Below are positions 21,828 to 37,667 of a DNA stretch of 43,417 nucleotides, in pieces. Where the stretch lies: NCBI GenBank assembly GCA_002714245.1, contig PAWX01000071.1, positions 1 to 43,417 on the forward strand, written 5' to 3'. Source of the stretch: Gammaproteobacteria bacterium (GTDB lineage Bacteria; Pseudomonadota; Gammaproteobacteria; Pseudomonadales; Litorivicinaceae). The first letter of the stretch is position 1. The number at the start of each line of letters is the position of its first letter. Below the pieces are notes generated by a model. It had not been told where the DNA came from. It saw only the letters and a list, made by a program, of their open reading frames with translations, and did not search any database. The position numbers and the translations under genes are program-made.

Positions 21828-23415
21828 TCGTCTTCACACAGACACACTGATCATCGGCGCCGGGAGCGCGGGCTGTGTGATTGCGAACCGGTTGTCAGCC
21901 AATCCCGAACACCAGGTAACCCTTGTAGAGGCTGGCGGCAAAGATAATTGGCACTGGATCCATATCCCGGTCGGCTATCTTTACACCATGGGGAATCCCA
22001 AAACAGACTGGTGCTACACAACAACGCCGCAAGAGGGCCTAAATGGCCGCAGCCTCGCATACCCACGTGGACGAGTCTTAGGTGGATGCTCGAGTATTAA
22101 CGGCATGATCTACATGCGTGGACAAAAAGACGACTACACGTCGTGGGGTGAGGGATGGTCATGGGACGACGTACTTCCCTATTACAAGAAGTCGGAGAAC
22201 TACCATCGAGGCGCCGACGACTACCATTCAGATCAGGGGGAGATGCTGGTTCAAGAGCAACGACTCAAGTGGGATGTTCTGGAGACATTTAAAAAAGTTT
22301 GTGAAGAGAACGGCTTCACTGACAGACCCGACTTCAACTGCGGAGATAACAGTGGGGTCGGTTATTTCGAGGTCACACAAAGAAAAGGGATCCGTTGGTC
22401 ATCGGCGCGCGCGTTCTTGCACCCGGTAATGCATCGATCAAACCTCACGGTAATGACCAAGACCTTGACCGTGCGACTCATCTTTGACGGAGACCGTTGC
22501 ATCGGTATGGAAGGAACCCGTCATGGCAAGCCTGTTTCAATTCGAGCAAAGCGTGTCGTTCTGGCCGCCGGCGCTGTCGGTTCACCATCACTCCTTGAGC
22601 GATCCGGGATTGGCTCTGAGGCGGTACTTAAACCACTGGGTATCCCTATCCGTAACCGACTCGAGGGTGTCGGTAAAAACCTACAAGACCATCTTCAGGT
22701 CCGGCTGCAATACCGCCTGGAGGCCGGCGAGACGCTCAACCAACACGCCAACTCATGGCTCGGTCGGATCAAAATGGGCCTGCACTACGCCTATAACCAG
22801 TCAGGGCCCTTGTCAATGGCCCCCAGCCAGCTTGGAGCTTTTTTTAAGTCGAGCGACGAGATCGATCGAGCTGACCTCGAATTCCATATCCAACCAATGA
22901 GCGCCGATAAACTTGGTACCGACCTCCATCCCTTTCCGGGAATGACCGCAAGCGTCTGTCATTTGCGGCCCGAGAGTCGGGGCACGGTCCACATCAGTGG
23001 TACGAACGCGTCGGATGCCCCGATTATTGACCCCAATTATCTATCCGAGACATACGACCGTGACGTCGTATGCAGGGCGATCGAAAAAACCAGAGACCTG
23101 ATGGACCATCCGCTACTCGCTGAGTTCTCACCATCCGAACACAAGCCGGGACGAACGCAGAAAACGGATCGCGACCTTGTCAAGGCCGCTGGTGATGTGG
23201 CGACAACAATTTTCCATCCTGTGGGGACCGCAAAGATGGGACCCGACACCGACGGTGAGGCGGTTGTATCCAGAAAACTCGGCGTCCATGGTTTACGTGA
23301 CCTTTATATCGCTGACGCATCGGTCTTTCCCACAATAACCAGTGGGAACACTCACGCTCCGGTCGTCATGATTGCCGAGCGGCTCGCGGAGTGGCTAGAT
23401 CAATCCGATGATTAG
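21820..23415 (+). CDS. GMC family flavin oxidoreductase (choline dehydrogenase-like)
   Basis: GAGSAG, 'GGCSSINGMIY.RG', 'NLQDHL', 'HPVGT.KMG', 'GNT.AP'. Confidence 0.92.
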   Translation: MTDRLHTDTLIIGAGSAGCVIANRLSANPEHQVTLVEAGGKDNWHWIHIPVGYLYTMGNPKTDWCYTTTPQEGLNGRSLAYPRGRVLGGCSSINGMIYMRGQKDDYTSWGEGWSWDDVLPYYKKSENYHRGADDYHSDQGEMLVQEQRLKWDVLETFKKVCEENGFTDRPDFNCGDNSGVGYFEVTQRKGIRWSSARAFLHPVMHRSNLTVMTKTLTVRLIFDGDRCIGMEGTRHGKPVSIRAKRVVLAAGAVGSPSLLERSGIGSEAVLKPLGIPIRNRLEGVGKNLQDHLQVRLQYRLEAGETLNQHANSWLGRIKMGLHYAYNQSGPLSMAPSQLGAFFKSSDEIDRADLEFHIQPMSADKLGTDLHPFPGMTASVCHLRPESRGTVHISGTNASDAPIIDPNYLSETYDRDVVCRAIEKTRDLMDHPLLAEFSPSEHKPGRTQKTDRDLVKAAGDVATTIFHPVGTAKMGPDTDGEAVVSRKLGVHGLRDLYIADASVFPTITSGNTHAPVVMIAERLAEWLDQSDD

Positions 23416-24439
23416 CGAAGAGCCCCAGATCATTTAAACGCTGATCCAGGCGCGGGAATACCCGCCTAGCGTTACCCTCAAAAAGCTTCTCCAGATCGCC
23501 ACGGGTCAGCCCTAGCTGGTCAATGTATTTCTTGGTATCGTCGAAATACTCCCCAGTGTTTGGATCGATTCCCTTCACCGCACCCAGCATCTCAGAACCA
23601 AACAACACATTGTCTGTGCCAATCACTGACAACAAGAGTTCTATGCCTGGCTTGTGGTAGACACAGGTATCAAAGTACACGTTTGTCATGATGTACTCTG
23701 ATGGCTCTGGTTTACCAAGCATCTGCGCGAGTCCACGGTACCTTCCCCAGTGGTAAGGAATAGCACCCCCGCCATGAGGGATAATAAAACGTAGGTCCGG
23801 GAACTCCGAAAATAAGTCACCCTGCACGAGCTGCATGAAGGCAGACGTGTCACCATTGATGTAGTGCGCGCCTGTCGTGTGGTGGCACTCATTACACGAC
23901 CCGGAGACATGAATCATCGCAGGAACGTCCAGCTCCACCATCACCTCATAAAGCGGGTACCAGTATGGGTCCGTTAATGGCTTCCCTGTCCAGTGGCCGC
24001 CCGAGGGGTCGGGGTTAAGGTTGAATCCAACGAACCCCATCCCGATACACCGGCGTAGCTCGTCGATTGCCGGCCCCAATGACTGGCCTCCCTCCTGCGG
24101 TAGCTGGCAGCCCGGTGCGAAGTTTTTGGGAAACAGCTCACAGACGCGGTGAATCAGGTCGTTACTCTCACGGGCCCAGGCGATAGATGTCTCTAGATCA
24201 GCCTGGTGCTGCCCCATCGCTGACGCCTTGGGGGAGAAAATCGTCATGTCCCCGCCACGTTCCTTGATCAACTTCAACTGATTATTTTCAATCGAATCGA
24301 TTATCTCGTCATCAGAGACTGCCGCCATCTTCGCGAGACTAGTGTCTTTACCCTCCGAAAACAGTCCAAGCTGTTCGTCCCGAAACGCTTGTAGCTTTGG
24401 AGACGATGTCGTGTAGTGGCCATGGCAATCGATAATCAT
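23366..24439 (-). CDS. ligJ: 4-oxalomesaconate (KCH) hydratase, amidohydrolase superfamily
   Basis: 'MIIDCHGHYTT', 'NPDPSGGHW', 'HTTGAHYIN.DT.AFMQ', 'PHGGGA.PYHWGR', 'FGSEM.GAV'. Confidence 0.9.
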   Translation of the reverse strand: MIIDCHGHYTTSSPKLQAFRDEQLGLFSEGKDTSLAKMAAVSDDEIIDSIENNQLKLIKERGGDMTIFSPKASAMGQHQADLETSIAWARESNDLIHRVCELFPKNFAPGCQLPQEGGQSLGPAIDELRRCIGMGFVGFNLNPDPSGGHWTGKPLTDPYWYPLYEVMVELDVPAMIHVSGSCNECHHTTGAHYINGDTSAFMQLVQGDLFSEFPDLRFIIPHGGGAIPYHWGRYRGLAQMLGKPEPSEYIMTNVYFDTCVYHKPGIELLLSVIGTDNVLFGSEMLGAVKGIDPNTGEYFDDTKKYIDQLGLTRGDLEKLFEGNARRVFPRLDQRLNDLGLFANHRIDLATPRAARQS

Positions 24440-24457: not shown

Positions 24458-25159
24458 TCAGTCTCTGGTCTCTTTGTCTTCGTCGTAGGTCACGTATTGC
24501 AGACCCATATCGAGGAGCCGTTGTCTCATATTGTTCATATCGAGACCCAGGGTCCCGTCCCGATACTTCCCCCTGACACCAGCCTCCCTGTCTTCACGCG
24601 CCTCAGATTTTTGTACCACCGAATCCAGCTCATGCCTACGCACAACGACGACCCCATCGTCGTCGCCGATAACCAGATCACTCGGGTTGACCACCTGCCC
24701 GCCACATACAACCGGGACGTTAACATCGCCAAGGGTCTCTTTAACGGTCCCCTGTGCCGAGATGCATCGACTGAAGACAGGGATATTCATTTGTCGTAGG
24801 TCGGCCAGATCACGGACACCTGAATCGATCACCAGCCCGGCGATCCCTCGAGCCTGCATCAGGGTCGCGAGAAGGTCGCCAAAGTAACCACAGTCTGACC
24901 GTGAGTTGACCGCGACCACCATCACGTCGCCCGGCTCACATTGCTCCATCGCGACGTGGATCATGACGTTATCGCCTGGGGTGGCGAACACGGTCACCGC
25001 CCGTCCGACCAGCTTTAACCCCTCCTTGATAGGCCTGATCTCGGGACTCAACAGACCCACACGGCCCTGAGCCTCGTGCACGGTGGCGACGCTGAGTTCC
25101 TTGTAACGGGTGACCGTCTCCGTTGGGATTGTGGGTATTCCGGTGACTACTTTTGGCAT
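24458..25159 (-). CDS. ligK: 4-carboxy-4-hydroxy-2-oxoadipate (CHA/HMG) aldolase
   Basis: 'VATVHEAQGR.GLL', 'PGDN.MIH', 'GYFGDLLA', 'GVRD', 'GTVKET.G', 'LGLD...MR'. Confidence 0.92.
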   Translation of the reverse strand: MPKVVTGIPTIPTETVTRYKELSVATVHEAQGRVGLLSPEIRPIKEGLKLVGRAVTVFATPGDNVMIHVAMEQCEPGDVMVVAVNSRSDCGYFGDLLATLMQARGIAGLVIDSGVRDLADLRQMNIPVFSRCISAQGTVKETLGDVNVPVVCGGQVVNPSDLVIGDDDGVVVVRRHELDSVVQKSEAREDREAGVRGKYRDGTLGLDMNNMRQRLLDMGLQYVTYDEDKETRD

Positions 25160-26124
25160 ATCGCCGCCTCCGTCTCTTTGTTTTTCAGCGACAGAATCTG
25201 ACCCAACAGGCTATCGACAACGTCGCGTTCGATTCCCCTACCGATGACCACCAAAACGTTCTCGGTGGGCCAACCAGAGTGGTTGTAGTCGAAGGTCACG
25301 TGCCGCCGGACCCCCTGAATAATCATGAATTGGTCACTACCATGCGTGCGGACCGTACCCTTCATCCTGAGAAGCCCGGGGCCAATTTGTTCGATCCATT
25401 CACCAAACAGATCCACAAACTCAGACTCGTCAACCGTCGCCTCCCAACGGATTGTTTGGGTCGTGTAGCCGTGGCCATCGTGGTGATATTCATGTCCGAT
25501 TGGGATCAGGCTCTGGCCTTGCATATAGCAATTTGCCGGACCCAAAAAGGTGTCCGTGGTGGGGAGGAGCTCATCCCTCAAAGACAGGACGTGCACATCG
25601 GAAAGCGGATTCAGGGACTGTAGTTGTTGTTTAAAATGATCTAGGTCCCGGGCTTCATCGTGTCTGTTGATAATAGATACTGATGCCATCGACAACTGCT
25701 CTGCGGCCGATTCTTGCGCCAACAGCCAGTCAAAGCTGTTCCTGCCGTCGACGACTGCCACCACCGACTGAAGCGAATAGGACCTGGAAAGGAACGAGCT
25801 TCCCTCAAAGAGTGGTATCAGGTCAGACGGATTCGAGATTCCACTGGTTTCGATCCAGACCGAGGTCTTGTCAGGGAAAAGGCTGGGAAGCTCGTGCAAG
25901 GTCCTGAGCAGGTCGTCTTTTACCGTACAACAGATGCACCCGCCATCCATCGCACGATAGGCGGTACCGGTCGAACCAATCTGCACAGAATCGAAGGACG
26001 CGTCACCAAAATCGTTCACGATCAAGACCGCATCTTTCAGTTGGCCCGACTGAATCAGTCCAAGCGCGAGCGTCGTCTTCCCGGCACCCAGGAATCCGGT
26101 GACTACACAGACTGGACGAGTCAA
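25147..26124 (-). CDS. COG0523/CobW-family metallochaperone GTPase
   Basis: GFLGAGKT Walker A, GCICC metal motif, ETSG, His-rich linker HEYHHDGH, CobW_C 'LRMKG'. Confidence 0.88.
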   Translation of the reverse strand: MTRPVCVVTGFLGAGKTTLALGLIQSGQLKDAVLIVNDFGDASFDSVQIGSTGTAYRAMDGGCICCTVKDDLLRTLHELPSLFPDKTSVWIETSGISNPSDLIPLFEGSSFLSRSYSLQSVVAVVDGRNSFDWLLAQESAAEQLSMASVSIINRHDEARDLDHFKQQLQSLNPLSDVHVLSLRDELLPTTDTFLGPANCYMQGQSLIPIGHEYHHDGHGYTTQTIRWEATVDESEFVDLFGEWIEQIGPGLLRMKGTVRTHGSDQFMIIQGVRRHVTFDYNHSGWPTENVLVVIGRGIERDVVDSLLGQILSLKNKETEAAICQK

Positions 26125-27239
26125 TGGACAGGCCCATGAGGCAACAACGAGACATGCACCACGTCCTCACTGATCTCCCCAGCCACGGCTCTTACCGCTG
26201 TATCAGCATCTTCCAATGGATAGGTGTGGGTCGTCACCAGATCCAGTGGGAACCGGTTTGAGGCAAGCTGCTCTAACGCTAGCTCACAAGACTGGTAGCC
26301 GTGGCCCCGAGCACTCTTGAAAGTAATCCACTTGACGGTGGCTTTGCCAAGCGGGAAGTTCGGAAACTCTGCCAGCTCGCCTTGTAGCAGGATGGTTCCC
26401 CCTTTCCGCTTGAGGGCCTCAACCCCTAGCATCACCGGGATCGTTCCGGCCCCGGACGTGCATTCAAGCGAGACATCGACCCCGATACCGCCGGTGATCT
26501 CCATAATCCGCTCGAGGGGATCCTCCTCACTCACGTTGATGGTATAATCCGCGCCCAGCTTCTTGGCAACCTCAAGGCGCCTCACGTCTTTGGCGGTGCC
26601 GGTCACGATAATGCACGAGGCACCCGCCTGCTTACAGGCAACGGTCTGAGCCATCCCCTGCTGGCCGGGGCCCTGAATTAATACCGACGAGTTGTAGCCC
26701 ACCCCACAATCGAACAGTGCCCACTCGATCCCGTTCGCCATCGGCGTGACGATCCCGGCGAGCTCTGGTGACACGCCCTTGGGGACCTTGTGCAGGACAG
26801 CGTTCCACGGCAGATACATATACTCAGCGAACCCACCCCAAAGATGAGGCGCAGACTCACACGAGGTGTATCCGTAGCGAATCGCATTGGGGTTATGCCG
26901 CCAGTCCGTTGAGGCACAGTGCCTGTACTCGCCCTTATGGCACCACTCGCACTGCATGCAGGTAACGTAGTGCTCGACGAACACGAGGTCACCTTCCTTT
27001 ACACCTTGACGCTCCGTGAATAATTTGCCGGCCTTTGCGATGTACCCGATGTTCTCGTGACCCATGATGACATGCTCGTCTTTCTGGGGTTTTTTGTACA
27101 TTTTCACGTCTGTGCCACAAATACCCGCCACCACGACTTTCATCAGCGCAGCATCCTCTGGTACGTCCGGCATAGGGTACTCCCGCATCTCCATCTGCGA
27201 CGCACCAACGCGAACCATCGCCTTCACCATCTCCGACAT
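26121..27239 (-). CDS. Zn-dependent medium-chain dehydrogenase
   Basis: GICGTD, GHE, CxxCxxC...C structural zinc site, GPGxxG. Confidence 0.9.
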   Translation of the reverse strand: MSEMVKAMVRVGASQMEMREYPMPDVPEDAALMKVVVAGICGTDVKMYKKPQKDEHVIMGHENIGYIAKAGKLFTERQGVKEGDLVFVEHYVTCMQCEWCHKGEYRHCASTDWRHNPNAIRYGYTSCESAPHLWGGFAEYMYLPWNAVLHKVPKGVSPELAGIVTPMANGIEWALFDCGVGYNSSVLIQGPGQQGMAQTVACKQAGASCIIVTGTAKDVRRLEVAKKLGADYTINVSEEDPLERIMEITGGIGVDVSLECTSGAGTIPVMLGVEALKRKGGTILLQGELAEFPNFPLGKATVKWITFKSARGHGYQSCELALEQLASNRFPLDLVTTHTYPLEDADTAVRAVAGEISEDVVHVSLLPHGPVH

Positions 27240-27374
27240 ACCAATCTCCTAAAATAGAACCCACAGTTTACCGACTCAATTCTCAGGAGCTATATTCAAT
27301 TCGGAACCACTGCAAAACAAACTTGATTGAGCAGAACCCTCGCATCTGCACCACCAAACTGGAACGATATATAT

Positions 27375-27659
27375 ATGAGAAGCGCGCTCAAGCAGCGATC
27401 GGAAGTTTATCGACTAGAGAGATTAATCCTCCAACGATTCGAGCTGCACCCGGGCACGATGCTGTTAATTGAAGAGCATTGGCCACGTGACCCGGGGTTC
27501 CCTGTACGGATGAGCGTGTTCTCGTTTTGGCTTGGGGACGTCCGGCACGGGTTCACGGTATTTAAACGTCTCGAAGAGGTCGACGACGGAGATTTTCCTC
27601 CTGGCTGGATGAAAAATCGACTAATCAGATTTGAGCCAATGGGATGCAGCTGCTGCTGA
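27375..27659 (+). CDS. Small conserved hypothetical protein with C-terminal CxCC
   Basis: 'DPGFP...FW...RH.F.VFK.LEEV...D.PP.W...GCSCC'; resembles a small family often auto-labelled 'nitrate reductase'. Start at ATG 27375 is inferred. Confidence 0.65.
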   Translation: MRSALKQRSEVYRLERLILQRFELHPGTMLLIEEHWPRDPGFPVRMSVFSFWLGDVRHGFTVFKRLEEVDDGDFPPGWMKNRLIRFEPMGCSCC

Positions 27660-27684
27660 GATAACAATAAAAAGGATGGTCAGG

Positions 27685-28626
27685 ATGGGTCTTAAAGCTG
27701 TCTCGCGGAGTCAGGGCGCTAACCAAGACATCAAGAGTGGGCAAATAAAACCAAAAGGGTTCGAGCTTGATTTCGAGGAGTGGCCGGTCCTCGTCAAGGC
27801 CTTCCGTGCGATGGTCCGAGAGCAAGCGTTCGATGTCTGTGAGATGGCCCTGACCACCTACATCTGTGCCCGACAACACGGCGTACCCCTGATCGGGATC
27901 CCTATATTTCTAGTCCGAGGATTTCACCACGATAAGATTAGTGTCGCCAAAGACTCAAACATCCGGAGCGTCGAGGACCTAGCCGGGACAAAAATCGGGG
28001 TGAACCGAGGATACACGGTCACGACAGGTGTGTGGGCGAGAACCATACTAGATAGGGAGGGGTTGGACCTGAACCAAGTGACCTGGGTTCGATCGAGCGA
28101 CGAGCACGTTGAAGCCTATTCACCCCCTAAAAACGTTGAAATGATTCCTGAAGGAAAGTCGCTCGAGGAGATGCTGGTCTCTGGTGAGCTGGGCGCCGTG
28201 GCAGGCATGGCGCCGGACGACTTTAGTTCAGATAAGGTACGAACCTTGATTACAGACCCAGACCAGTCAGCGCTACTCGCGCTCGATCGGAGCGGTTTTT
28301 ATCCAATCAACCACCTGATCGTGATGACGGAATCTATCGTAGAGACGTTCCCGACACTACCCGAGGCGCTATTCGAATGTTTTTCAGAGCAAAAGAGACA
28401 GTACCTGGAAAGCCTGACTGCAAGACCCACGGCGGACAATGACGAAATCGATGCCCGCAACCGGAGACTCCAGTCGTTGGGGTTCGATCCACTACCCTAT
28501 GGGATCGAACCAAACGAGCAGGTACTCAACGAGTTGATTGAGTCTGGGCTGCGCCAGAAAATTTTATCCCCGACCACCGGATGGGGGGACTATTTCTGCG
28601 GCTCGGTGCTTAATCTAAATGGCTAA
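27685..28626 (+). CDS. 4,5-dihydroxyphthalate decarboxylase-like protein (type 2 periplasmic-binding fold, no signal peptide)
   Basis: 'FDVCEMALTTY', 'IPIF..RGFHH', 'GYTVTTGVW.R', 'YPINH', 'DPLPYGIEPN'; ATG 27685 with AAGGA SD. Confidence 0.75.
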   Translation: MGLKAVSRSQGANQDIKSGQIKPKGFELDFEEWPVLVKAFRAMVREQAFDVCEMALTTYICARQHGVPLIGIPIFLVRGFHHDKISVAKDSNIRSVEDLAGTKIGVNRGYTVTTGVWARTILDREGLDLNQVTWVRSSDEHVEAYSPPKNVEMIPEGKSLEEMLVSGELGAVAGMAPDDFSSDKVRTLITDPDQSALLALDRSGFYPINHLIVMTESIVETFPTLPEALFECFSEQKRQYLESLTARPTADNDEIDARNRRLQSLGFDPLPYGIEPNEQVLNELIESGLRQKILSPTTGWGDYFCGSVLNLNG

Positions 28627-29486
28627 GCGCGGTAGAAATCGTCGAAAAATGTAAACACAGAATCGCTGTTCTGGGCATCAATCGGGAGATCCAGGAACCG
28701 CGAGTCTGACAGACATTCCTTCACAAAGTGGGCCGCTGATCGTGCGTGGCTCTCATCAGCCCCTGGCAAAATACACACCGGTCGCGCGATCTGCATCAGT
28801 TCCTCGGGTCTCGGCCCCGGTGCACTGTCACAGTCGAACATGGCCCTGTAGCTTGCCTGTACCAGCCTCCCATAAGCCGCCTCGTCACATGTTCTCAGCG
28901 ACTCAGAGAGCCCCTCATCGACGCGGAGAGAACCGCCCCACGGGCCAAGCGTAGAGTCCTTCGCGAACCCAACCTCGGAGCCAAGCGCTTTCTCGATCAA
29001 GGCCCCGGTCCCGTGTTCTGAGACCCAGGCCAAGTGAGTCGAAAATCGGCCAAAGTTACGGATCCGATACCTCGCCCCACCCACCGGCCAGACAAGGTTA
29101 AGGCTCGTCGTAAGATTCGGATACAGACGTGCGAACTCCGATGCCGGAGCGCACCCGAGGCATCCGCCGATCACATGCGCAGATCGCTGTCCGAGTTGTT
29201 CGAGTACAGCATTTCCGTGTCTTGCCATCCCCGCGAAATCCAGTATCTCTAACCGACCGCCTGATTTGCCGCACTCTCGTCGATCAAACAAGATACAAGT
29301 GAAACGGTCAGCCAAGTAGCTCATGATGTCGATTTTCTTGTAGATGCCAAGATCGGTCCATTTCTCAAGCGTCGCATCAAAACCGCCCGGAGAAAACATC
29401 AAAAGCGGCTCGCCTTTACCGATAACAGATACCCGGGTCGGAATACCATCAGCGTCTAACATTTGAGTCGTAATTTTTGTCATCAC
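28623..29486 (-). CDS. Alpha/beta-fold hydrolase with Cys nucleophile
   Basis: 'PGGF' oxyanion loop, 'FDRRECG.S', elbow GGCLG, 'PG.D.SH'. Confidence 0.85.
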   Translation of the reverse strand: MMTKITTQMLDADGIPTRVSVIGKGEPLLMFSPGGFDATLEKWTDLGIYKKIDIMSYLADRFTCILFDRRECGKSGGRLEILDFAGMARHGNAVLEQLGQRSAHVIGGCLGCAPASEFARLYPNLTTSLNLVWPVGGARYRIRNFGRFSTHLAWVSEHGTGALIEKALGSEVGFAKDSTLGPWGGSLRVDEGLSESLRTCDEAAYGRLVQASYRAMFDCDSAPGPRPEELMQIARPVCILPGADESHARSAAHFVKECLSDSRFLDLPIDAQNSDSVFTFFDDFYRA

Positions 29487-30295
29487 TTTCTACCAAGACC
29501 GCCCTTGATCTGTTTTCCGGATCGGATATCTCCGAGCAACTCGGTCACCGCATCCCGACTCGTCTGGGCAGTGTAGGCGTATGCGCTTGGCGGGTTGTCT
29601 AGGAACTTGGTCCCGTAACCGACCGCTGCGTGAAACATCCGTATCCGACCATCGAGCCACGGACCACCGCCCATGCCCCCAATAACAGGAATACCTACAG
29701 CATCTGTTATAGCCTCACCAATCACGGGCCCGGCGTTTGTCAGATCGATCATGGCCGCACCAGCCTGCTCGCAGACCTGAGCCTCCTGAATCAACTGTTC
29801 CATCATCTCATCAGGAACAAGACTCTCCGGTTGCTGTAGGTCACCAATACTAATCCCATACTTTGAACCCGACTGGGGACTGAGACCCATCTGTGCAAAT
29901 ACAGGAACACCCGCCCGAGTCACAGCAGTAACAGCCTCAGGGAAATCGGGGGCAGCATCAATCTTTACCAGATCAGCCCCTCCCTCCTGGACGAGTCTGA
30001 TCGCGGCACGGACCGCCTCCGTGGGATCGATTTGCACGGGACCGTAGGGAATGTCTGCACACACAAGTGCATCAGGTGCACCACGCCGGACAGCCTTTAC
30101 GGCGACCAGGAAGTCGTCCAGCGTGATCTCCAGATTGTTCGAGTGGCCCCAAAGATTGACCCCAACAGAGTCACCAACGATAAGGAAGTCAGCCCCACAC
30201 TCGTGTGCGATGTGCGCAGTCGGGGCGTCCCAAACAACCAACGCGGCAGACTTCTCGCCGATTCCTTTCATGGCCTGTATCTGGTTGATGTTCAT
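29483..30295 (-). CDS. Divergent PanB-like (ketopantoate hydroxymethyltransferase-fold) enzyme
   Basis: 'VGDSVG', 'ADIPYG', 'VKID', 'MGLSPQ'; residues equivalent to PanB H136 and E181 are changed; ATG 30295 after AGGAG. Confidence 0.8.
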   Translation of the reverse strand: MNINQIQAMKGIGEKSAALVVWDAPTAHIAHECGADFLIVGDSVGVNLWGHSNNLEITLDDFLVAVKAVRRGAPDALVCADIPYGPVQIDPTEAVRAAIRLVQEGGADLVKIDAAPDFPEAVTAVTRAGVPVFAQMGLSPQSGSKYGISIGDLQQPESLVPDEMMEQLIQEAQVCEQAGAAMIDLTNAGPVIGEAITDAVGIPVIGGMGGGPWLDGRIRMFHAAVGYGTKFLDNPPSAYAYTAQTSRDAVTELLGDIRSGKQIKGGLGRK

Positions 30296-30316
30296 ACTCA
30301 CTCCTGAACCTTACAA

Positions 30317-31321
30317 TTAGCCGTAACGATCATAAAATACCTGATCCGACGGGACCCGGTAGTGGCGGACAATCTCCTGCTCTACCGCGCCGGCCATAAG
30401 TGGCGGCCCGGCGAAGTAAAGATCGACCTCATTGAGGCGCTCGTCGAGTTTTTGTTTGGCCAGTTCGTGAACGAATCCCTCAAAGACACGACCATCGTCG
30501 GTACCGGATCTATCAGTCAACGCGACCTCATAATTGATCCAGTCACCATAACTTGGCATAACCGACAAGAACTGCTCACCCGCAATATCTTCCACGGCGC
30601 GGCCACCATAATAAAAGAAAACCTGTTCTGTCGTGCGCGCGCTTGATGCGGCCTCGATGGCTCGCGCAACAGAGACCATGGGGGATAACCCGGAACCTCC
30701 AGCGATTAGCACGATATCTCTACCACGAAACCCTCGAAAATAGCCGCGACCGTAGGGTCCGATGATGTCACACTCGAGTCCCACCTCAGCGTCGTCGAAC
30801 AGAGCCGTGGTCGCGGCACCACCGGGCACTCTCTTGATTTGGAAATCCCAGACACCATCGCCTCCCCCGATGTTACACATCGAGTAAGCTCGGGACCCAG
30901 GGACACCCGGGACGTCAATCAGGGCAAACTGACCGGGCTCAAACGCCTGACTCGAGTGAGTCTCAAAACGAAACTCGGAGATGTCATGGGTAACCTCCTC
31001 TATCGCCACCAGCCGCGAACTAAAACGAGACGGGTTGTGCACAGGCTCGTACTGGTCAAACAGGCGTACCTTGATCTTTAGATCACTCTTCGGTACGCAC
31101 TGACAGGCGAGATGCCGATTCCTCTGCAGGTCTCGCTCGGTGAGGATTTCTGGCTCACCGTTAGGATACTCGATGTCCCCCGATAGCAACTCAAAACGGC
31201 AGTTTCCGCAACTCCCAGACGCGCACTCATACGGAAACCCAAGCCCCTGCTCAAGGGCCGATCGCAGCAAAAAATCGCCACCACAGCCAAAAGAAATCCC
31301 ATCTTTAATTTGTACCTTCAA
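30317..31321 (-). CDS. 2Fe-2S ferredoxin/FAD/NAD(P)H oxidoreductase (oxygenase reductase component, TmoF/XylA-like)
   Basis: CASGSCGNC...C plant-type 2Fe-2S, RAYS flavin motif, GGSGLSP, AGPP, C-terminal 'YDRYG'. Confidence 0.9.
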   Translation of the reverse strand: MKVQIKDGISFGCGGDFLLRSALEQGLGFPYECASGSCGNCRFELLSGDIEYPNGEPEILTERDLQRNRHLACQCVPKSDLKIKVRLFDQYEPVHNPSRFSSRLVAIEEVTHDISEFRFETHSSQAFEPGQFALIDVPGVPGSRAYSMCNIGGGDGVWDFQIKRVPGGAATTALFDDAEVGLECDIIGPYGRGYFRGFRGRDIVLIAGGSGLSPMVSVARAIEAASSARTTEQVFFYYGGRAVEDIAGEQFLSVMPSYGDWINYEVALTDRSGTDDGRVFEGFVHELAKQKLDERLNEVDLYFAGPPLMAGAVEQEIVRHYRVPSDQVFYDRYG

Positions 31322-31339: not shown

Positions 31340-32947
31340 TTAAGACATACCATGACCCTGAAATATCAATGACTTAACAGTCACCGGCACGGTCCGTGAC
31401 GGCAGCCGGATTCGGCCTAGGTCAACAAACTCGAATTCTTTGAAGCGGAGACCGTCGAGCACCAGCAGCGGTCTCCCGATTTCATGTTCAGTCGTCAGAA
31501 TCCGCCCCACACTTTGGGCGAGATCCCGGTCGAACAACAAATAAAGCGCTGAGTCGCGGTGCTCTGTGTCCGACTCTATGTAACCAACAATGGAATCACA
31601 AAAACGCTTCAGTAGCTCATAGTCAAAATCGCCTAACCACTCAAACGCCAGAGCAAATTCTTCGTAGTCAGTTAAATCAAACTCGGTAACTGACCGTATT
31701 AACCGACACTTAAGGTCATCAGAAGTAAGATTTCCTGCGTCAACCGTCAGCCGTATCACTGGCATATTTTTCCGTGGCAACAATAGCCCGGGATCCGACA
31801 AATAACCGGTATTTCCGCTGACCTGAATATTGAACTCAGATGCTCCCAGTGCCGTCGCCCGTATCCCTCCTCGCGCAGCCTCGAATCGAATATTACTCTT
31901 CCATTCATTGAGCGCGTTCAGAAGCTGGTTACCGAGTGACTGGCCAATATCGTTGTGTCCATCAGCATCAGCATCAGCAATGTACTCGGACACGCCACCA
32001 GAGAAAATGACGGTACCGACATCGGGCGGGATCTCCAGCGGATTGGTCAGCCACCGGGCATCGGAACGCTGCTTGCCTGTGACAATGTCGAAAATGATAC
32101 TCGACAAGTGTTCGCCTAGCGCGGTGATCATCGTATCCGAAACCATATCGCCCAACCCAATCTCATGGCCGAGGTCAGACAGTACCTCGGCGGCACGTGG
32201 CTCTATCCGACTGATCTGGCCCTGTGCGTCCCAGACAAATAATCGGCCACCGACATGGAACGCCGCGGTCTGGATCAAGCTACCGTCTCGAATCAGCGCG
32301 AGCTTGGTGGTTCCCCCACCGATATCCACGTTGAGCACGCACGATGACTCTTTGCCCGATAATTCCACCGCACCTGAACCATGTGCCGCAAGATTGGACT
32401 CCATATGATGACCCGCGCTGGCGCTCAGAAAGTCTCCACCCTTGTGAGCGATCACGTGCGCTATCCCCTCCGCATTTTGGCGCCTCAATGCCTCCCCAGT
32501 CAGTAGCACGACCCCGATATCGACGTCGTGTGGCGTCACGTCAGCCTCTCGATAGGCCTGATCGATCAGCGAGCCCAGCGCCCGAGCATCGATTTCAGTG
32601 GCATCCGCGTAGGGAGTAAAGAAAATTGGTGACTGATACAACAACCGTCTGTCGACAACTACGTAGCGGGAGCTCAGTGCCTCTCCCTGCCGCTCAAGAT
32701 GAACCTGAGAAAAGACTACCTGTGTACTGCTTGAGCCGATATCGACCCCGACAGTGGACAGGAAGATATTGTCCTGCTGCCACAGCGGATTATCTTCAAG
32801 CGGACCGTCATCAAAATCGTCATCATGATCATGATCGTAGTGATGCCCCGGTACATGAGTGTGCTCATTAAAAATACCGTATTCGTGATCTGAAAGTGCG
32901 TGCCCAGCGTCGTCGGCGTCTGCACTCTTATTATTTGGCTTCGCCAA
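31340..32947 (-). CDS. eutA: EutA-like ASKHA-fold ATPase with His/Asp-rich N-terminus
   Basis: 'VGVDIGSSSTQ', 'LLTGEA', 'NVDIGGGTT', 'FSGGVSE', 'IRAT.LGA', 'VPVTVKSLIF'. Likely TTG start at 32947 (frame open to 33001). Confidence 0.82.
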   Translation of the reverse strand: MAKPNNKSADADDAGHALSDHEYGIFNEHTHVPGHHYDHDHDDDFDDGPLEDNPLWQQDNIFLSTVGVDIGSSSTQVVFSQVHLERQGEALSSRYVVVDRRLLYQSPIFFTPYADATEIDARALGSLIDQAYREADVTPHDVDIGVVLLTGEALRRQNAEGIAHVIAHKGGDFLSASAGHHMESNLAAHGSGAVELSGKESSCVLNVDIGGGTTKLALIRDGSLIQTAAFHVGGRLFVWDAQGQISRIEPRAAEVLSDLGHEIGLGDMVSDTMITALGEHLSSIIFDIVTGKQRSDARWLTNPLEIPPDVGTVIFSGGVSEYIADADADGHNDIGQSLGNQLLNALNEWKSNIRFEAARGGIRATALGASEFNIQVSGNTGYLSDPGLLLPRKNMPVIRLTVDAGNLTSDDLKCRLIRSVTEFDLTDYEEFALAFEWLGDFDYELLKRFCDSIVGYIESDTEHRDSALYLLFDRDLAQSVGRILTTEHEIGRPLLVLDGLRFKEFEFVDLGRIRLPSRTVPVTVKSLIFQGHGMS

Positions 32948-33107
32948 AGATGTTCGCCCCCATAGCAAGAATGTTTCGTTCCTATCGTCCTCTGGACACA
33001 CTTTTTCTGAGTATCATTGCTACCATCGAATCCAAGCCTGTTGAAGACATATTTTTATCTGGCGGGTGAATTTGTTCACTTCGCCATGGAGGTTTTTGAG
33101 GAATATC

Positions 33108-34226
33108 ATGAGTAAAAATGCCATCGTTTCAGACGATCTAGCAAAAAAATTCGCGAAGGAAAAGGATACCCCATACCTAAAATGGGTCCGCGATCAGGGG
33201 CTCGATATCATTGACGCTCTATACGTCAAGAATCTGAACCATGTCGAGCTCAAACCCTGGCCCCGCCGCGGTGGCTCGGGTGTATACATAAACCATGATG
33301 CGTCTCGCACGACCAATGACTGTTATGTGTGTGAGATCCCCGCCGGAAAAAAACTGGAACCCCAGAGCCAGTTATTCGAAGAAACTGTGATGATCCTGTC
33401 GGGACACGGGAAAACGACAGTCAAAAACTTTGCGGGACAGGAGGTCGAGTTCGAGTGGGGTCCCGGGGCTCTGTTCGCCATCCCGCTGAATACACTACAT
33501 CAACACTTCAACCTATCAGGATCTCAGCCGGCTCGGTATGTCGCGGTAACCAATGCGCCACCAATATTAAATACCTACGGTGACCCAGAGTTCGTCTTCA
33601 ACACCCGCCACGACTTCCCAGAGCGCTTCAGCGGTGACCCTGAGTTTTTCTCAGGCAAGGGCGAACAGAAAGGCCTGCTGTTGGAGACTAACTTTGTTCC
33701 GGACGGCGTCAATTTACCGCTGATTGAGGCAAAAGAGCGCGGCGCCGGGGGCGGCCATATCCGTTTCAATTTCGCGAAGAGTTCATTGAATAGCCACATC
33801 TCGCAGTTCCCCTTAGGTACCTACAAGAAGGCACACGCTCACGGCCCGGGCGCTCATGTGATTATTCTCAGTGGGTCCGGTTACTCTCTGATGTGGCCCG
33901 AGGGCGCCGAGCCTGAGCGCTTCGATTGGGAAGTTGGCTCGATGATCGTGCCACCTAATATGTGGTACCACCAACACTTCAACACGGGCACCACACCCGC
34001 GCGTTATCTGGCATTCAAATATGAGGGAGTCGCGATCCGAAACGCACAGGGGGTTCCCAAGGCGTGGATCAGTAAACGCATCGGCGGTCATCAGATCGAC
34101 TACGCTGATGAGACCCAAGAGGTGCGTGATCTATTTGAAAAAGCACTCGCTATGAACGGTCTATCCACTCAGATGACCGAGGCCTATGAGAGAGAACTAG
34201 AGGACCTTCCGCCAAAACCTGCATAA
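33108..34226 (+). CDS. Bicupin-domain protein (gentisate dioxygenase-like fold), function unknown
   Basis: Two cupin repeats: 'QLFEE..ILSG.G.T...HQHFN' and 'HAHGPGAH.IILSG.GYS...HQHFN'; ATG 33108 after GAGGA. Confidence 0.85.
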   Translation: MSKNAIVSDDLAKKFAKEKDTPYLKWVRDQGLDIIDALYVKNLNHVELKPWPRRGGSGVYINHDASRTTNDCYVCEIPAGKKLEPQSQLFEETVMILSGHGKTTVKNFAGQEVEFEWGPGALFAIPLNTLHQHFNLSGSQPARYVAVTNAPPILNTYGDPEFVFNTRHDFPERFSGDPEFFSGKGEQKGLLLETNFVPDGVNLPLIEAKERGAGGGHIRFNFAKSSLNSHISQFPLGTYKKAHAHGPGAHVIILSGSGYSLMWPEGAEPERFDWEVGSMIVPPNMWYHQHFNTGTTPARYLAFKYEGVAIRNAQGVPKAWISKRIGGHQIDYADETQEVRDLFEKALAMNGLSTQMTEAYERELEDLPPKPA

Positions 34227-36446: not shown

Positions 36447-37667
36447 CTAGCTGAACTCTTTCATATCTGCGTCGACACTAACCAACAGCTCGTCCATAAG
36501 ACCCGGTAAAGCACTGCTGACTCGATTCCAACTCGGAATAAATGGCCGCTCGGTCGGGTTTTCAAGAAAATGCGTCCCGGCTTTCATCAGGTTCAAAGCA
36601 AATAATTCCACGGCCTTCTCTTCCCTGTGCAAGTCGAGGTCGAGCCCATTTATGGCAGAGTCGCTTTTGTAGTGATCGACAAAATCGAGCGCGACACGGT
36701 AATAAGTCGCCTTTATCGTTCTGAATGTTTCCTGATTGAAAACTATTCCGTTGGTCGCGAGTTTCCTGAAGATTGCCTTGCTGATGTCGATCGACATCCT
36801 GGACAGTCCCGTACTCTCGTCGTCTTGCGATAAATCTTGATGCTTATGATCGTAAGTGTCGGCAATATCAACCTGACATAGTCGGTTATTGGAATAGTTC
36901 CGGGTCATTTCGCTCAAGATACCGATCTCTAGGCCCCAATCTGATGGGATCCGTAGGTCTTTGATTACGTCTCGGCTAAAAGACATTTCCCCGGCGAGTG
37001 GGTACCTGAAGCTGTCGAGATAATCCAAGTATTCCAATGACCCAAATATCCGCTTGAGAGTCTGTAACAGTGGGGTCACTAGCAGCCGTGTTACCCTACC
37101 GTTCATTTTACCGTTAGCGACACGGGCATAGTAGCCCTTGCAAAACTCGTAGTTAAATTGTGGGTGGGCGACTGGATACAAAAGACGGGCAAGTAGCGAG
37201 CGATCATAGGTAACAATGTCGCAATCGTGAATAGCAAGCGCATCGGCCTGATTCGAGCCTAGGGCATACCCCATGCAAAACCACACATTACGTCCCTTCC
37301 CCATCTGATCCGGTGAAAGCTTTGCGTCCCTCAATTTCTGGTCTACCGCACGCAACCTTGGCCCGTCATGCCAAAGTACTTTTACGTTCTGAGGGAGTTG
37401 GTTAAAAACGAGCAGCGCTTTCTTGTATTCTTCTAGGGTCGCGCAATCGAGCCCAATGATTAATTGATCAAGATACGGAACGTGGCTTAGCTCTTTGACG
37501 ATCTTAGGCATCGATTCCGTTTCAAGCTCGGAATATAGACATGGGAGTATTAACCCTAGCCGCTTTTCCTTTGAAAACCGCAAGAGCTCGGACTCCAGTG
37601 CATCCGTGCCACGCTGAGCTAGGTTGTGAAGCGTGGTCACAATTCCGTTTTGATAGAAATCACCCAT
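36447..37667 (-). CDS. gpgS: Glucosyl-3-phosphoglycerate synthase
   Basis: 'MGDFYQNG..TTLH', 'GKGRNVW', 'HDCDI', 'GRVTRL', 'YPLAGE', 'DWGLEIG', 'YDHKHQ'. Confidence 0.88.
   Translation of the reverse strand: MGDFYQNGIVTTLHNLAQRGTDALESELLRFSKEKRLGLILPCLYSELETESMPKIVKELSHVPYLDQLIIGLDCATLEEYKKALLVFNQLPQNVKVLWHDGPRLRAVDQKLRDAKLSPDQMGKGRNVWFCMGYALGSNQADALAIHDCDIVTYDRSLLARLLYPVAHPQFNYEFCKGYYARVANGKMNGRVTRLLVTPLLQTLKRIFGSLEYLDYLDSFRYPLAGEMSFSRDVIKDLRIPSDWGLEIGILSEMTRNYSNNRLCQVDIADTYDHKHQDLSQDDESTGLSRMSIDISKAIFRKLATNGIVFNQETFRTIKATYYRVALDFVDHYKSDSAINGLDLDLHREEKAVELFALNLMKAGTHFLENPTERPFIPSWNRVSSALPGLMDELLVSVDADMKEFS

Follow-up and report, generated by a model that had tools for sequence, protein, structure and literature searches.

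The window analysed here is a stretch of 43,417 nucleotides (contig PAWX01000071.1 of GenBank assembly GCA_002714245.1) from the metagenome-assembled genome (MAG) of a gammaproteobacterium; the MAG comprises 1.87 Mb in 73 contigs and is 78% complete. Loci nearly identical to this one are found in Litoricola/Litorivicinus-like MAGs, and the source is probably a marine bacterium of that kind. The window carries a gene for an ATPase of the EutA family with an ASKHA fold (31340..33001, minus strand; 553 amino acids (aa); Pfam PF06277), which lies head-to-head with a gene for a bicupin (33108..34226, plus strand; 372 aa). An earlier note, made from the sequence alone, had described this arrangement, and profile searches bear it out: the ATPase matches the full PF06277 profile, its neighbour matches Cupin_2, and the two genes diverge from an intergenic region of 106 bp (33002..33107). 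The pairing of an EutA-like protein with a bicupin recurs in hundreds of genomes, far beyond chance, and in our judgement the EutA-like protein is probably a dedicated accessory ATPase of the bicupin. The open reading frame (ORF) of the bicupin is open from position 33066, and translation probably begins with the ATG at 33108, which has GGAGG ahead of it; for the EutA-like protein, an alternative TTG start at 32947 would give a product of 535 aa. The intergenic region holds a single weak promoter-like match, on the plus strand (33081–33109), which is not above chance expectation.

The EutA-like protein and its bicupin neighbour

Canonical EutA spends ATP on opening its client enzyme and exchanging a damaged cofactor. 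The EutA-like protein of the window matches PF06277 over nearly the whole profile (positions 3–475 of 475; E = 3e-100), but it falls below the cut-offs of all four NCBIfam EutA equivalog models, scoring 286 bits against a cut-off of 598 for NF007992 and 178–229 bits against 769–952 for the others. The same is true of all three EutA-like paralogues in the MAG, which lie far under these cut-offs. The ASKHA phosphate-1 (D87/G89), phosphate-2 (D226-G-G-G-T231) and adenosine (G335-G336) motifs are invariant in 46 sequences drawn from both cupin-linked and canonical EutA proteins, and ATP binding is therefore expected. The AlphaFold 2 model of the protein (predicted local distance difference test (pLDDT) score of 81) consists of an ASKHA core and an alpha/beta C-terminal domain. 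When it was searched with Foldseek, the matches in the PDB were generic for the ASKHA fold (PPX/GppA, PilM, ROK kinases, HgdC, MreB and sugar kinases), and no solved EutA structure was found among them.

The ends of the protein are distinctive. Residues 34–59 (32825..32902, minus strand) contain eight His among many Asp and belong to a segment, residues 1–65, that is predicted to be disordered (pLDDT < 50). Orthologues of the same kind, which we call type I, have 6–19 His in the N-terminal segment, a C-terminal tail of 40–77 residues with as many as 27 His, or both. A motif scan found no His in such ends of a second group, type II, and the alignment shows canonical EutA proteins to be without the N-terminal extension. 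The motif GPLEDNPLWQQDN (32768..32806, minus strand), located past the His-rich segment and ahead of the ASKHA core, is conserved across type I orthologues in alignments and a motif scan. Neither an Fe–S motif nor a conserved cysteine cluster was found in the translation or the alignment of the EutA-like protein.

The bicupin, the probable client of the ATPase, belongs to a widespread and highly conserved family. Relatives occur in at least 542 stretches of a one-genome-per-species collection, including abundant marine Litoricolaceae, SAR116 and Rhodobacteraceae, and the protein is 70–77% identical across Alpha-, Beta- and Gammaproteobacteria, Actinomycetota, Acidobacteriota and Chloroflexi. 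Its AlphaFold 2 model (pLDDT 85; predicted template modelling score 0.87) shows two beta-barrels, and structural comparison gave matches to bicupin enzymes, with Z of 17–21, that span residues 16–335. In an exhaustive structural search the top folds were salicylate 1,2-dioxygenase (2phd, Z 20.8), gentisate 1,2-dioxygenase (3bu7, Z 20.8) and the E. coli relative of these enzymes (2d40, Z 19.7), and vicilins and oxalate decarboxylase came next (Z 18.9–19.7); Foldseek ranked oxalate decarboxylase and vicilins first, with low template modelling scores. Sequence similarity to 3bu7 is weak (phmmer, E = 0.002), the sole NCBIfam match reached 25 bits against a cut-off of 650, and ESM Atlas returned only "cupin domain-containing protein."

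Enzymes of the gentisate dioxygenase family hold Fe(II) at a three-His site in the N-terminal, catalytic barrel. In the bicupin, a candidate four-His metal site is predicted in the C-terminal barrel (H243, H245, H250 and H288; 33834..33971, plus strand), at the cupin motif-1 and motif-2 positions. These four residues are invariant in 33 orthologue sequences, and H250 is missing only in the divergent paralogue on contig C20 of the MAG. At the equivalent motif positions the N-terminal barrel has Q86, Q88, E92 and H131, and an HQHFN signature is retained in both barrels. The bicupin is therefore gentisate-dioxygenase-like in fold, with a different placement of the putative metal ligands. It is probably a ring-cleaving-type dioxygenase and the candidate ring-cleaving enzyme of the catabolic island in which it lies. 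NCBI names some of its orthologues "ethanolamine ammonia lyase-activating protein" (P0127, P0218 and P0233), a label that has probably been carried over from the EutA label of the neighbouring gene.

Linkage and phylogeny of the cupin-associated branch

The earlier note had called the EutA-like gene an orphan, a description that does not survive a wider search. Three EutA-like genes are present in the MAG, and each adjoins a bicupin of 369–397 aa. The two pairs outside the window are type II-like: on contig C3 (33573–36226; L006:9574–12227) the EutA-like gene is followed after 8 bp by the bicupin, and on contig C20 (21269–23987; L007:9270–11988) the bicupin is followed after 70 bp by the EutA-like gene. 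Both pairs lie in clusters with a TauD-family dioxygenase, a 3-hydroxyisobutyrate-dehydrogenase-like gene and transporters (TctABC or EamA). Contig C20 contains many ambiguous bases, translated as X. A Hydantoinase_B/oxoprolinase gene (L006:5335–6909) lies a few genes from the EutA-like gene on C3, and Hydantoinase_A is absent among the annotated ORFs nearby.

Beyond this MAG, we counted neighbours by tblastn at the 80 best bicupin loci, 49 of which are well flanked, with 4 kb or more of sequence to either side of the bicupin. At 42 of the 49 well-flanked loci (43 with a looser threshold), which represent several phyla, the bicupin has an EutA-family gene no more than 10 kb away. Five exceptions were searched genome-wide, and an EutA-like gene turned up in all five genomes; in three, this gene is 12–20 kb from the bicupin, apparently on the same contig, as judged from contig numbering. 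Every orientation occurs: over the 80 loci, the EutA-like gene is upstream and co-directional in 25, downstream and co-directional in 20, and divergent in 14. The linkage to the cupin from which the earlier note had argued is thus conserved, and its survival through heavy rearrangement across phyla is strong evidence that the two genes form a functional pair. At some loci there is one EutA-like ATPase per two or three cupins. Across loci, the bicupin is about 73% identical and the ATPase only about 43%, and this faster evolution of the ATPase suggests an accessory role.

The phylogeny of the EutA family gives a consistent picture. The sample combined 150 representatives, gathered with an EutBC-adjacent EutA as query, with cupin-linked proteins; a tree of 102 rows was built with FastTree and a reduced one with IQ-TREE (LG+G4), both with midpoint roots only and with Shimodaira–Hasegawa (SH)-type supports rather than bootstraps. 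Fifty-three cupin-linked proteins and the three from the MAG formed one clade in the FastTree tree (SH-like support 99), as did 24 cupin-linked proteins and the same three in the IQ-TREE tree (SH approximate likelihood ratio test, 99). Outside this clade, all six proteins with fully visible context adjoin EutB/EutC (G295, G217, G256, P0378, P0348 and P0318); the gene next to a seventh, P0267, is interrupted by the end of its contig, and the nearest outside row, P0330, is on a contig of 5.5 kb whose context is uninformative. The type I subclade has 42 rows, including the window protein, which is approximately 41–47% identical to type I proteins beyond its own lineage. The type II subclade has 13 rows, including the C20 paralogue, and the C3 paralogue branches nearby. 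Five of the proteins gathered with the canonical EutA query (P0256, P0342, P0346, P0360 and P0375) are 650–690 aa long, with an extra N-terminal domain of approximately 170–210 residues. A PF06277 search of 300 genomes, phylum-wide, returned mostly short spurious ASKHA matches and three true EutA genes, all linked to EutBC. Judged by its sequence relationships, the window protein is not a canonical EutA but belongs to a large branch of its own within that ATPase family.

These results bear directly on one alternative explanation, namely that the protein is an ordinary EutA, or reactivates some other adenosylcobalamin enzyme whose gene lies elsewhere, perhaps in the 22% of the genome that the MAG lacks, and that its position beside a cupin is meaningless. 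The strong PF06277 match and the incompleteness of the MAG would allow this, and the MAG encodes two proteins with B12-binding domains, both on contigs other than that of the window. As the earlier note had stated, however, the window holds no B12 enzyme: Pfam searches of nearly all ORFs of at least 120 aa found no EutB, EutC or B12-binding domain. EutB was also not found in the MAG, either with hidden Markov models or by tblastn with a fused EutBC, although at 78% completeness its absence is not proven. Each of three paralogues lies beside a bicupin, the linkage holds in 42 of 49 loci, EutBC was found within 10 kb at none of the 80 loci, and the protein belongs to a clade separate from the EutBC-linked proteins and fails the equivalog cut-offs. 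Taken together, these observations leave an ordinary EutA, or a reactivase of another B12 enzyme, with almost no credibility.

One practical implication concerns annotation. Thousands of database entries carry the name "ethanolamine ammonia-lyase reactivating factor EutA," and some of the cupins beside them are named as activators of the same enzyme. These proteins are probably unrelated to ethanolamine or B12.

Permease fusions, the catabolic island and its reductase

Additional clues to function come from loci in which the EutA-like protein is joined to a transporter. At two loci from Betaproteobacteria, the type I gene continues in frame into the next gene, giving products of 1198 and 1180 aa, and at least eight distinct proteins or clusters of 1144–1198 aa combine PF06277 with BPD_transp_1, all from Burkholderiales where named. 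In these fusions the EutA-like domain is followed by a linker of 70–90 residues, composed almost wholly of His, Asp and Gly, and then by a duplicated, FbpB-like ATP-binding cassette (ABC) permease. At least 13 loci have the order EutA-like gene, permease, ABC ATPase, bicupin, binding protein and small cupins. The importer falls well short of the cut-off of any named transporter family, and its best scores are to the "putative 2-aminoethylphosphonate" PhnS2/T2/U2 models. In the PDB, the sequences that match the binding protein are mostly those of ferric-iron binding proteins (such as HitA, FbpA, SfuA and YfuA; E down to 3e-15), and the FbpA-like family also includes binders of organic ligands such as pyridoxal phosphate and 2-aminoethylphosphonate; the iron-binding Tyr pair is ambiguously conserved. 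The permease fusion and the FbpA-like binding protein suggest that the metal is iron. Two further long EutA-like fusions, P0402 (1001 aa) and P0401 (1142 aa), contain SAM-methyltransferase domains in one case and an unannotated C-terminal part of 600 residues in the other.

The same loci can be read differently, with the ASKHA protein as a catalytic subunit that activates a substrate with ATP, by phosphorylation or adenylation, for conversion by the cupin, as in acetone carboxylase/hydantoinase-type enzymes. Fusion to a permease would then couple uptake to activation, and both the interleaving of the ABC genes with the pair and the organic ligands bound within the FbpA-like family would fit. 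ASKHA is, moreover, mainly a kinase/ATPase fold, with sugar kinases and PPX/GppA among the structural matches, and the 8-bp spacing of the C3 pair suggests translational coupling and a fixed stoichiometry. Against this reading, some loci have one ATPase for two or three cupins, and the ATPase evolves much faster than its partner (43% versus 73% identity), as is usual for accessory factors. The disordered, length-variable His-rich ends have no obvious role in substrate activation, and the sole characterised function of the family is the exchange of a cofactor on a client rather than the phosphorylation of a substrate. We therefore regard a catalytic subunit as unlikely, though it is the strongest competitor of an accessory role on the bicupin.

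The genes around the pair in the window read as a catabolic island. Downstream of the EutA-like gene, on the same strand, lie genes for a BenC/MmoC-like 2Fe–2S/FAD/NAD(P)H reductase (30317..31321, minus strand; Fer2, FAD_binding_6 and NAD_binding_1 by Pfam, with NCBIfam support), for a PanB-like protein of the ketopantoate hydroxymethyltransferase family (29483..30301, minus strand; PF02548, E = 1e-56) and for an alpha/beta hydrolase (28623..29486, minus strand; Pfam). The reductase gene starts 18 bp past the EutA-like stop codon, the PanB-like gene follows after 15 bp, and the hydrolase gene overlaps the PanB-like gene by 4 bp; all belong to the same operon. The PanB-like protein lies below the NCBIfam PanB cut-offs and is syntenic in marine Gamma- and Alphaproteobacteria. 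On the opposite strand is a gene for a cytoplasmic 4,5-dihydroxyphthalate-decarboxylase-like protein (27631..28626, plus strand; phmmer to PDB 9jp7, E = 3e-29), homologues of which occur in 14 of the 49 loci; we considered and rejected the reading of this ORF as a periplasmic binding protein, since it has no visible signal peptide and matches 4,5-dihydroxyphthalate decarboxylase. Just upstream of it is a small ORF of 110 aa with the C terminus GCSCC (27327–27659, plus strand), which is kept in eight related loci and may encode a metal- or thiol-binding protein.

The remainder of the island consists of genes for a Zn-dependent alcohol dehydrogenase family protein (26121..27239, minus strand; Pfam), a COG0523 (CobW-type) GTPase metallochaperone with a GCICC motif (25147..26124, minus strand; Pfam cobW and CobW_C), a LigK-type 4-carboxy-4-hydroxy-2-oxoadipate aldolase (24458..25159, minus strand; NF006731, 308 bits against a cut-off of 179) and an Amidohydro_2 enzyme of the LigJ/LigI/decarboxylase family (23366..24439, minus strand; PF04909, E = 1.6e-54). 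The COG0523 protein has a short His-rich patch in addition to the GCICC motif, its gene is syntenic in 8 of the 49 loci (marine Gamma- and Alphaproteobacteria), and its client could be the alcohol dehydrogenase, the Amidohydro_2 enzyme or the cupin. The whole order, from the Amidohydro_2 enzyme through the aldolase, COG0523 GTPase, alcohol dehydrogenase, GCSCC protein, decarboxylase-like protein, hydrolase, PanB-like protein and reductase to the EutA-like gene, with the bicupin divergent, is the same in Litoricolaceae MAGs, a SAR116 genome and Rhodobacteraceae, including Brevirhabdus pacifica. Outside the island, the first 10 kb of the window hold housekeeping genes (a degP-type protease, rseB/rseC, sigma-factor genes and an FAD flavoprotein), and a 406-aa ORF without a Pfam match (36447–37667, minus strand) has an alpha-amylase-family gene on one side and a HAD phosphatase gene on the other.

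Related genes are found on contig C4 of the MAG, which encodes a 432-aa LigXa-like Rieske oxygenase, 71% identical to its counterpart in related loci, and a 102-aa Rieske ferredoxin, with no reductase there. Because the C4 genes adjoin the bicupin and EutA-like genes in other genomes, the module appears to be split over two contigs in the MAG. In alphaproteobacterial loci, for example, a LigXa-like Rieske oxygenase gene lies 1.3 kb downstream of the bicupin. The same stretch of C4 (L095:999–8570) also encodes an Amidohydro_2 enzyme, a 170-aa protein, a dienelactone hydrolase, two monocupins of approximately 190 aa, one of which shares the HQHFN signature of the bicupin, and a second 4,5-dihydroxyphthalate-decarboxylase-like protein. 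The combination of a Rieske oxygenase and reductase, a dihydroxyphthalate-decarboxylase-like enzyme, hydrolases, and LigJ-family and LigK-type enzymes leads us to read the island as a putative catabolic route for an aromatic carboxylate, with oxygenation, decarboxylation, ring cleavage, hydrolysis, hydration and aldol cleavage.

The position of the EutA-like gene directly upstream of the reductase gene, which the earlier note had observed correctly, admits yet another explanation, in which the two proteins together re-reduce the cupin metal in an ATP-coupled reaction, in the manner of RACo or of the activators of 2-hydroxyacyl-CoA dehydratases. The 18-bp spacing within one operon and the retention of this order in Litoricolaceae, SAR116 and Rhodobacteraceae are consistent with such a partnership, HgdC-type activators are among the ASKHA fold matches, and ring-cleaving Fe(II) dioxygenases are generally known to need reductive reactivation, for example by XylT-type ferredoxins. 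However, only 9 of the 49 well-flanked loci have a homologue of the reductase within 10 kb, and the EutA-like protein has no conserved cysteine cluster. The reductase also has a more obvious partner. Reductases with an N-terminal Fer2 domain followed by FAD and NAD domains work with Rieske ferredoxins in class III Rieske-oxygenase systems, all components of which are present in the MAG (a reductase of this build, the Rieske ferredoxin and the Rieske oxygenase). The window reductase is the only one of BenC/MmoC type found in the MAG, the oxygenase and ferredoxin on C4 have no reductase of their own, and a Rieske oxygenase gene is present in 8 of 13 reductase-bearing loci. Its domain build, the reductase-less C4 genes and this co-occurrence indicate that the window reductase most likely serves the C4 Rieske oxygenase and not the EutA-like protein. 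The parallel with RACo/RACE-type systems drawn in the earlier note thus gains little support, and we consider reductive activation quite improbable, more so than a catalytic role of the ASKHA subunit.

Proposed function and comparison with known systems

We return to the reading of the EutA-like protein as an accessory ATPase. Of the roles suggested in the earlier note, that of an ATP-dependent activase, reactivase or metal-insertion factor for the cupin is the best-supported inference. In the specific form that we favour, with somewhat better than even confidence, the protein would be an ATP-driven factor for the maturation or reactivation of the metal centre of a ring-cleaving-type cupin in an aromatic-acid catabolic island. 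Its client would be the adjacent bicupin, not ethanolamine ammonia-lyase. The EutA-like protein would dock on the bicupin and spend ATP either to load the four-His centre or to swap an oxidised or lost metal ion there, and the His-rich segment would serve as a metal-holding arm. The metal would most likely be iron. The metal-loading role is proposed by analogy with the ATP-driven cofactor exchange of EutA and with His-rich metal-delivery factors. A more ambitious and clearly more tentative proposal is that the cupin-linked EutA branch constitutes a new actin-fold class of metallochaperone or reactivase, whose His arms collect iron (or another metal), in some lineages at the cytoplasmic face of a fused FbpABC-like importer, for ATP-driven insertion or replacement in the four-His site of bicupin oxygenases.

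Several observations weigh against a role in metal loading. Type II proteins are without His-rich ends and yet are linked to bicupins, so metal held on His tails can account for only part of the mechanism. A COG0523 GTPase, of a type already known to insert metals, is encoded in the island as well. The ABC importer may transport an organic substrate instead of iron, given that it lies under all named-family cut-offs and that the conservation of its Tyr-Tyr iron ligand is ambiguous. As for the client, gentisate and salicylate dioxygenases exceed seed storage proteins and oxalate decarboxylase by only 1–2 Z units, and where gentisate dioxygenase has its catalytic N-terminal His ligands, the bicupin has Gln.

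If the proposal is correct, an ATPase family known for cofactor exchange has been re-used for a non-corrinoid metal centre, which would make it a new type of factor for metalloenzyme maturation or repair. It would explain how activity is kept up in a widespread and extremely conserved family of bicupin oxygenases, and it would provide a handle on an uncharacterised route of aromatic-carboxylate degradation in seawater and soil. The module is carried by cultured organisms, including Marinobacter algicola DG893, Brevirhabdus pacifica DSM 27767, Saccharospirillum alexandrii, Phyllobacterium and Nocardioides. In the literature searched, we found no paper on the EutA-like/bicupin module and no description of an ASKHA ATPase as a His-rich factor for metal-centre assembly; the "EutA" of ectoine papers is an unrelated gene name.

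Comparison with known systems helps to place both partners. The closest solved folds for the bicupin are the gentisate and salicylate 1,2-dioxygenases (3bu7 and 2phd; Z 20.8 over approximately 260 aligned residues), which share its aromatic catabolic context. Identity to these enzymes is only 12–17%, however, and there is no NCBIfam equivalog match; the catalytic barrel of gentisate dioxygenase is N-terminal, whereas the bicupin has Gln-x-Gln there and its four His in the C-terminal barrel.

For the ATPase, RACo, in which a 2Fe–2S domain is fused to an ASKHA ATPase that activates the corrinoid iron–sulfur protein, offers the precedent of an ASKHA ATPase reactivating a metal cofactor, and a 2Fe–2S protein likewise adjoins the EutA-like gene. 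Unlike RACo, the EutA-like protein has no Fe–S domain or cysteine motif, and the neighbour is a separate FAD/NAD enzyme found at a minority of loci. The Hsp70-like reactivases of diol and glycerol dehydratases (DdrAB, PduGH and GdrAB) are also actin-fold ATPases that replace a dead cofactor, but the analogy is functional only: they have two subunits and B12 enzymes as clients, and we saw no detectable sequence relation to the EutA-like protein. UreE/UreG, HypB, CooJ and COG0523 proteins resemble it in their variable, disordered His-rich ends, in being encoded beside their clients and in evolving faster than those clients. These systems couple nucleotide hydrolysis to metal delivery, as we propose by analogy for the EutA-like protein, although they use G3E P-loop GTPases rather than an ASKHA ATPase.

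The nearest relative remains EutA of E. coli and Salmonella. The two share the full-length Pfam family, the ASKHA nucleotide-binding motifs and the C-terminal domain, and the cupin-linked protein is presumably also an ATP-driven factor acting on the cofactor site of a partner. In contrast to EutA, the cupin-linked proteins form a clade of their own below the equivalog cut-offs, with EutBC neighbours at none of the 80 loci and at none of the three pairs in the MAG. To the common architecture, type I proteins add the His/Asp-rich N-terminal extension, the GPxEDNPxW motif, often a His-rich C-terminal tail and, in some cases, fusion to an ABC permease.

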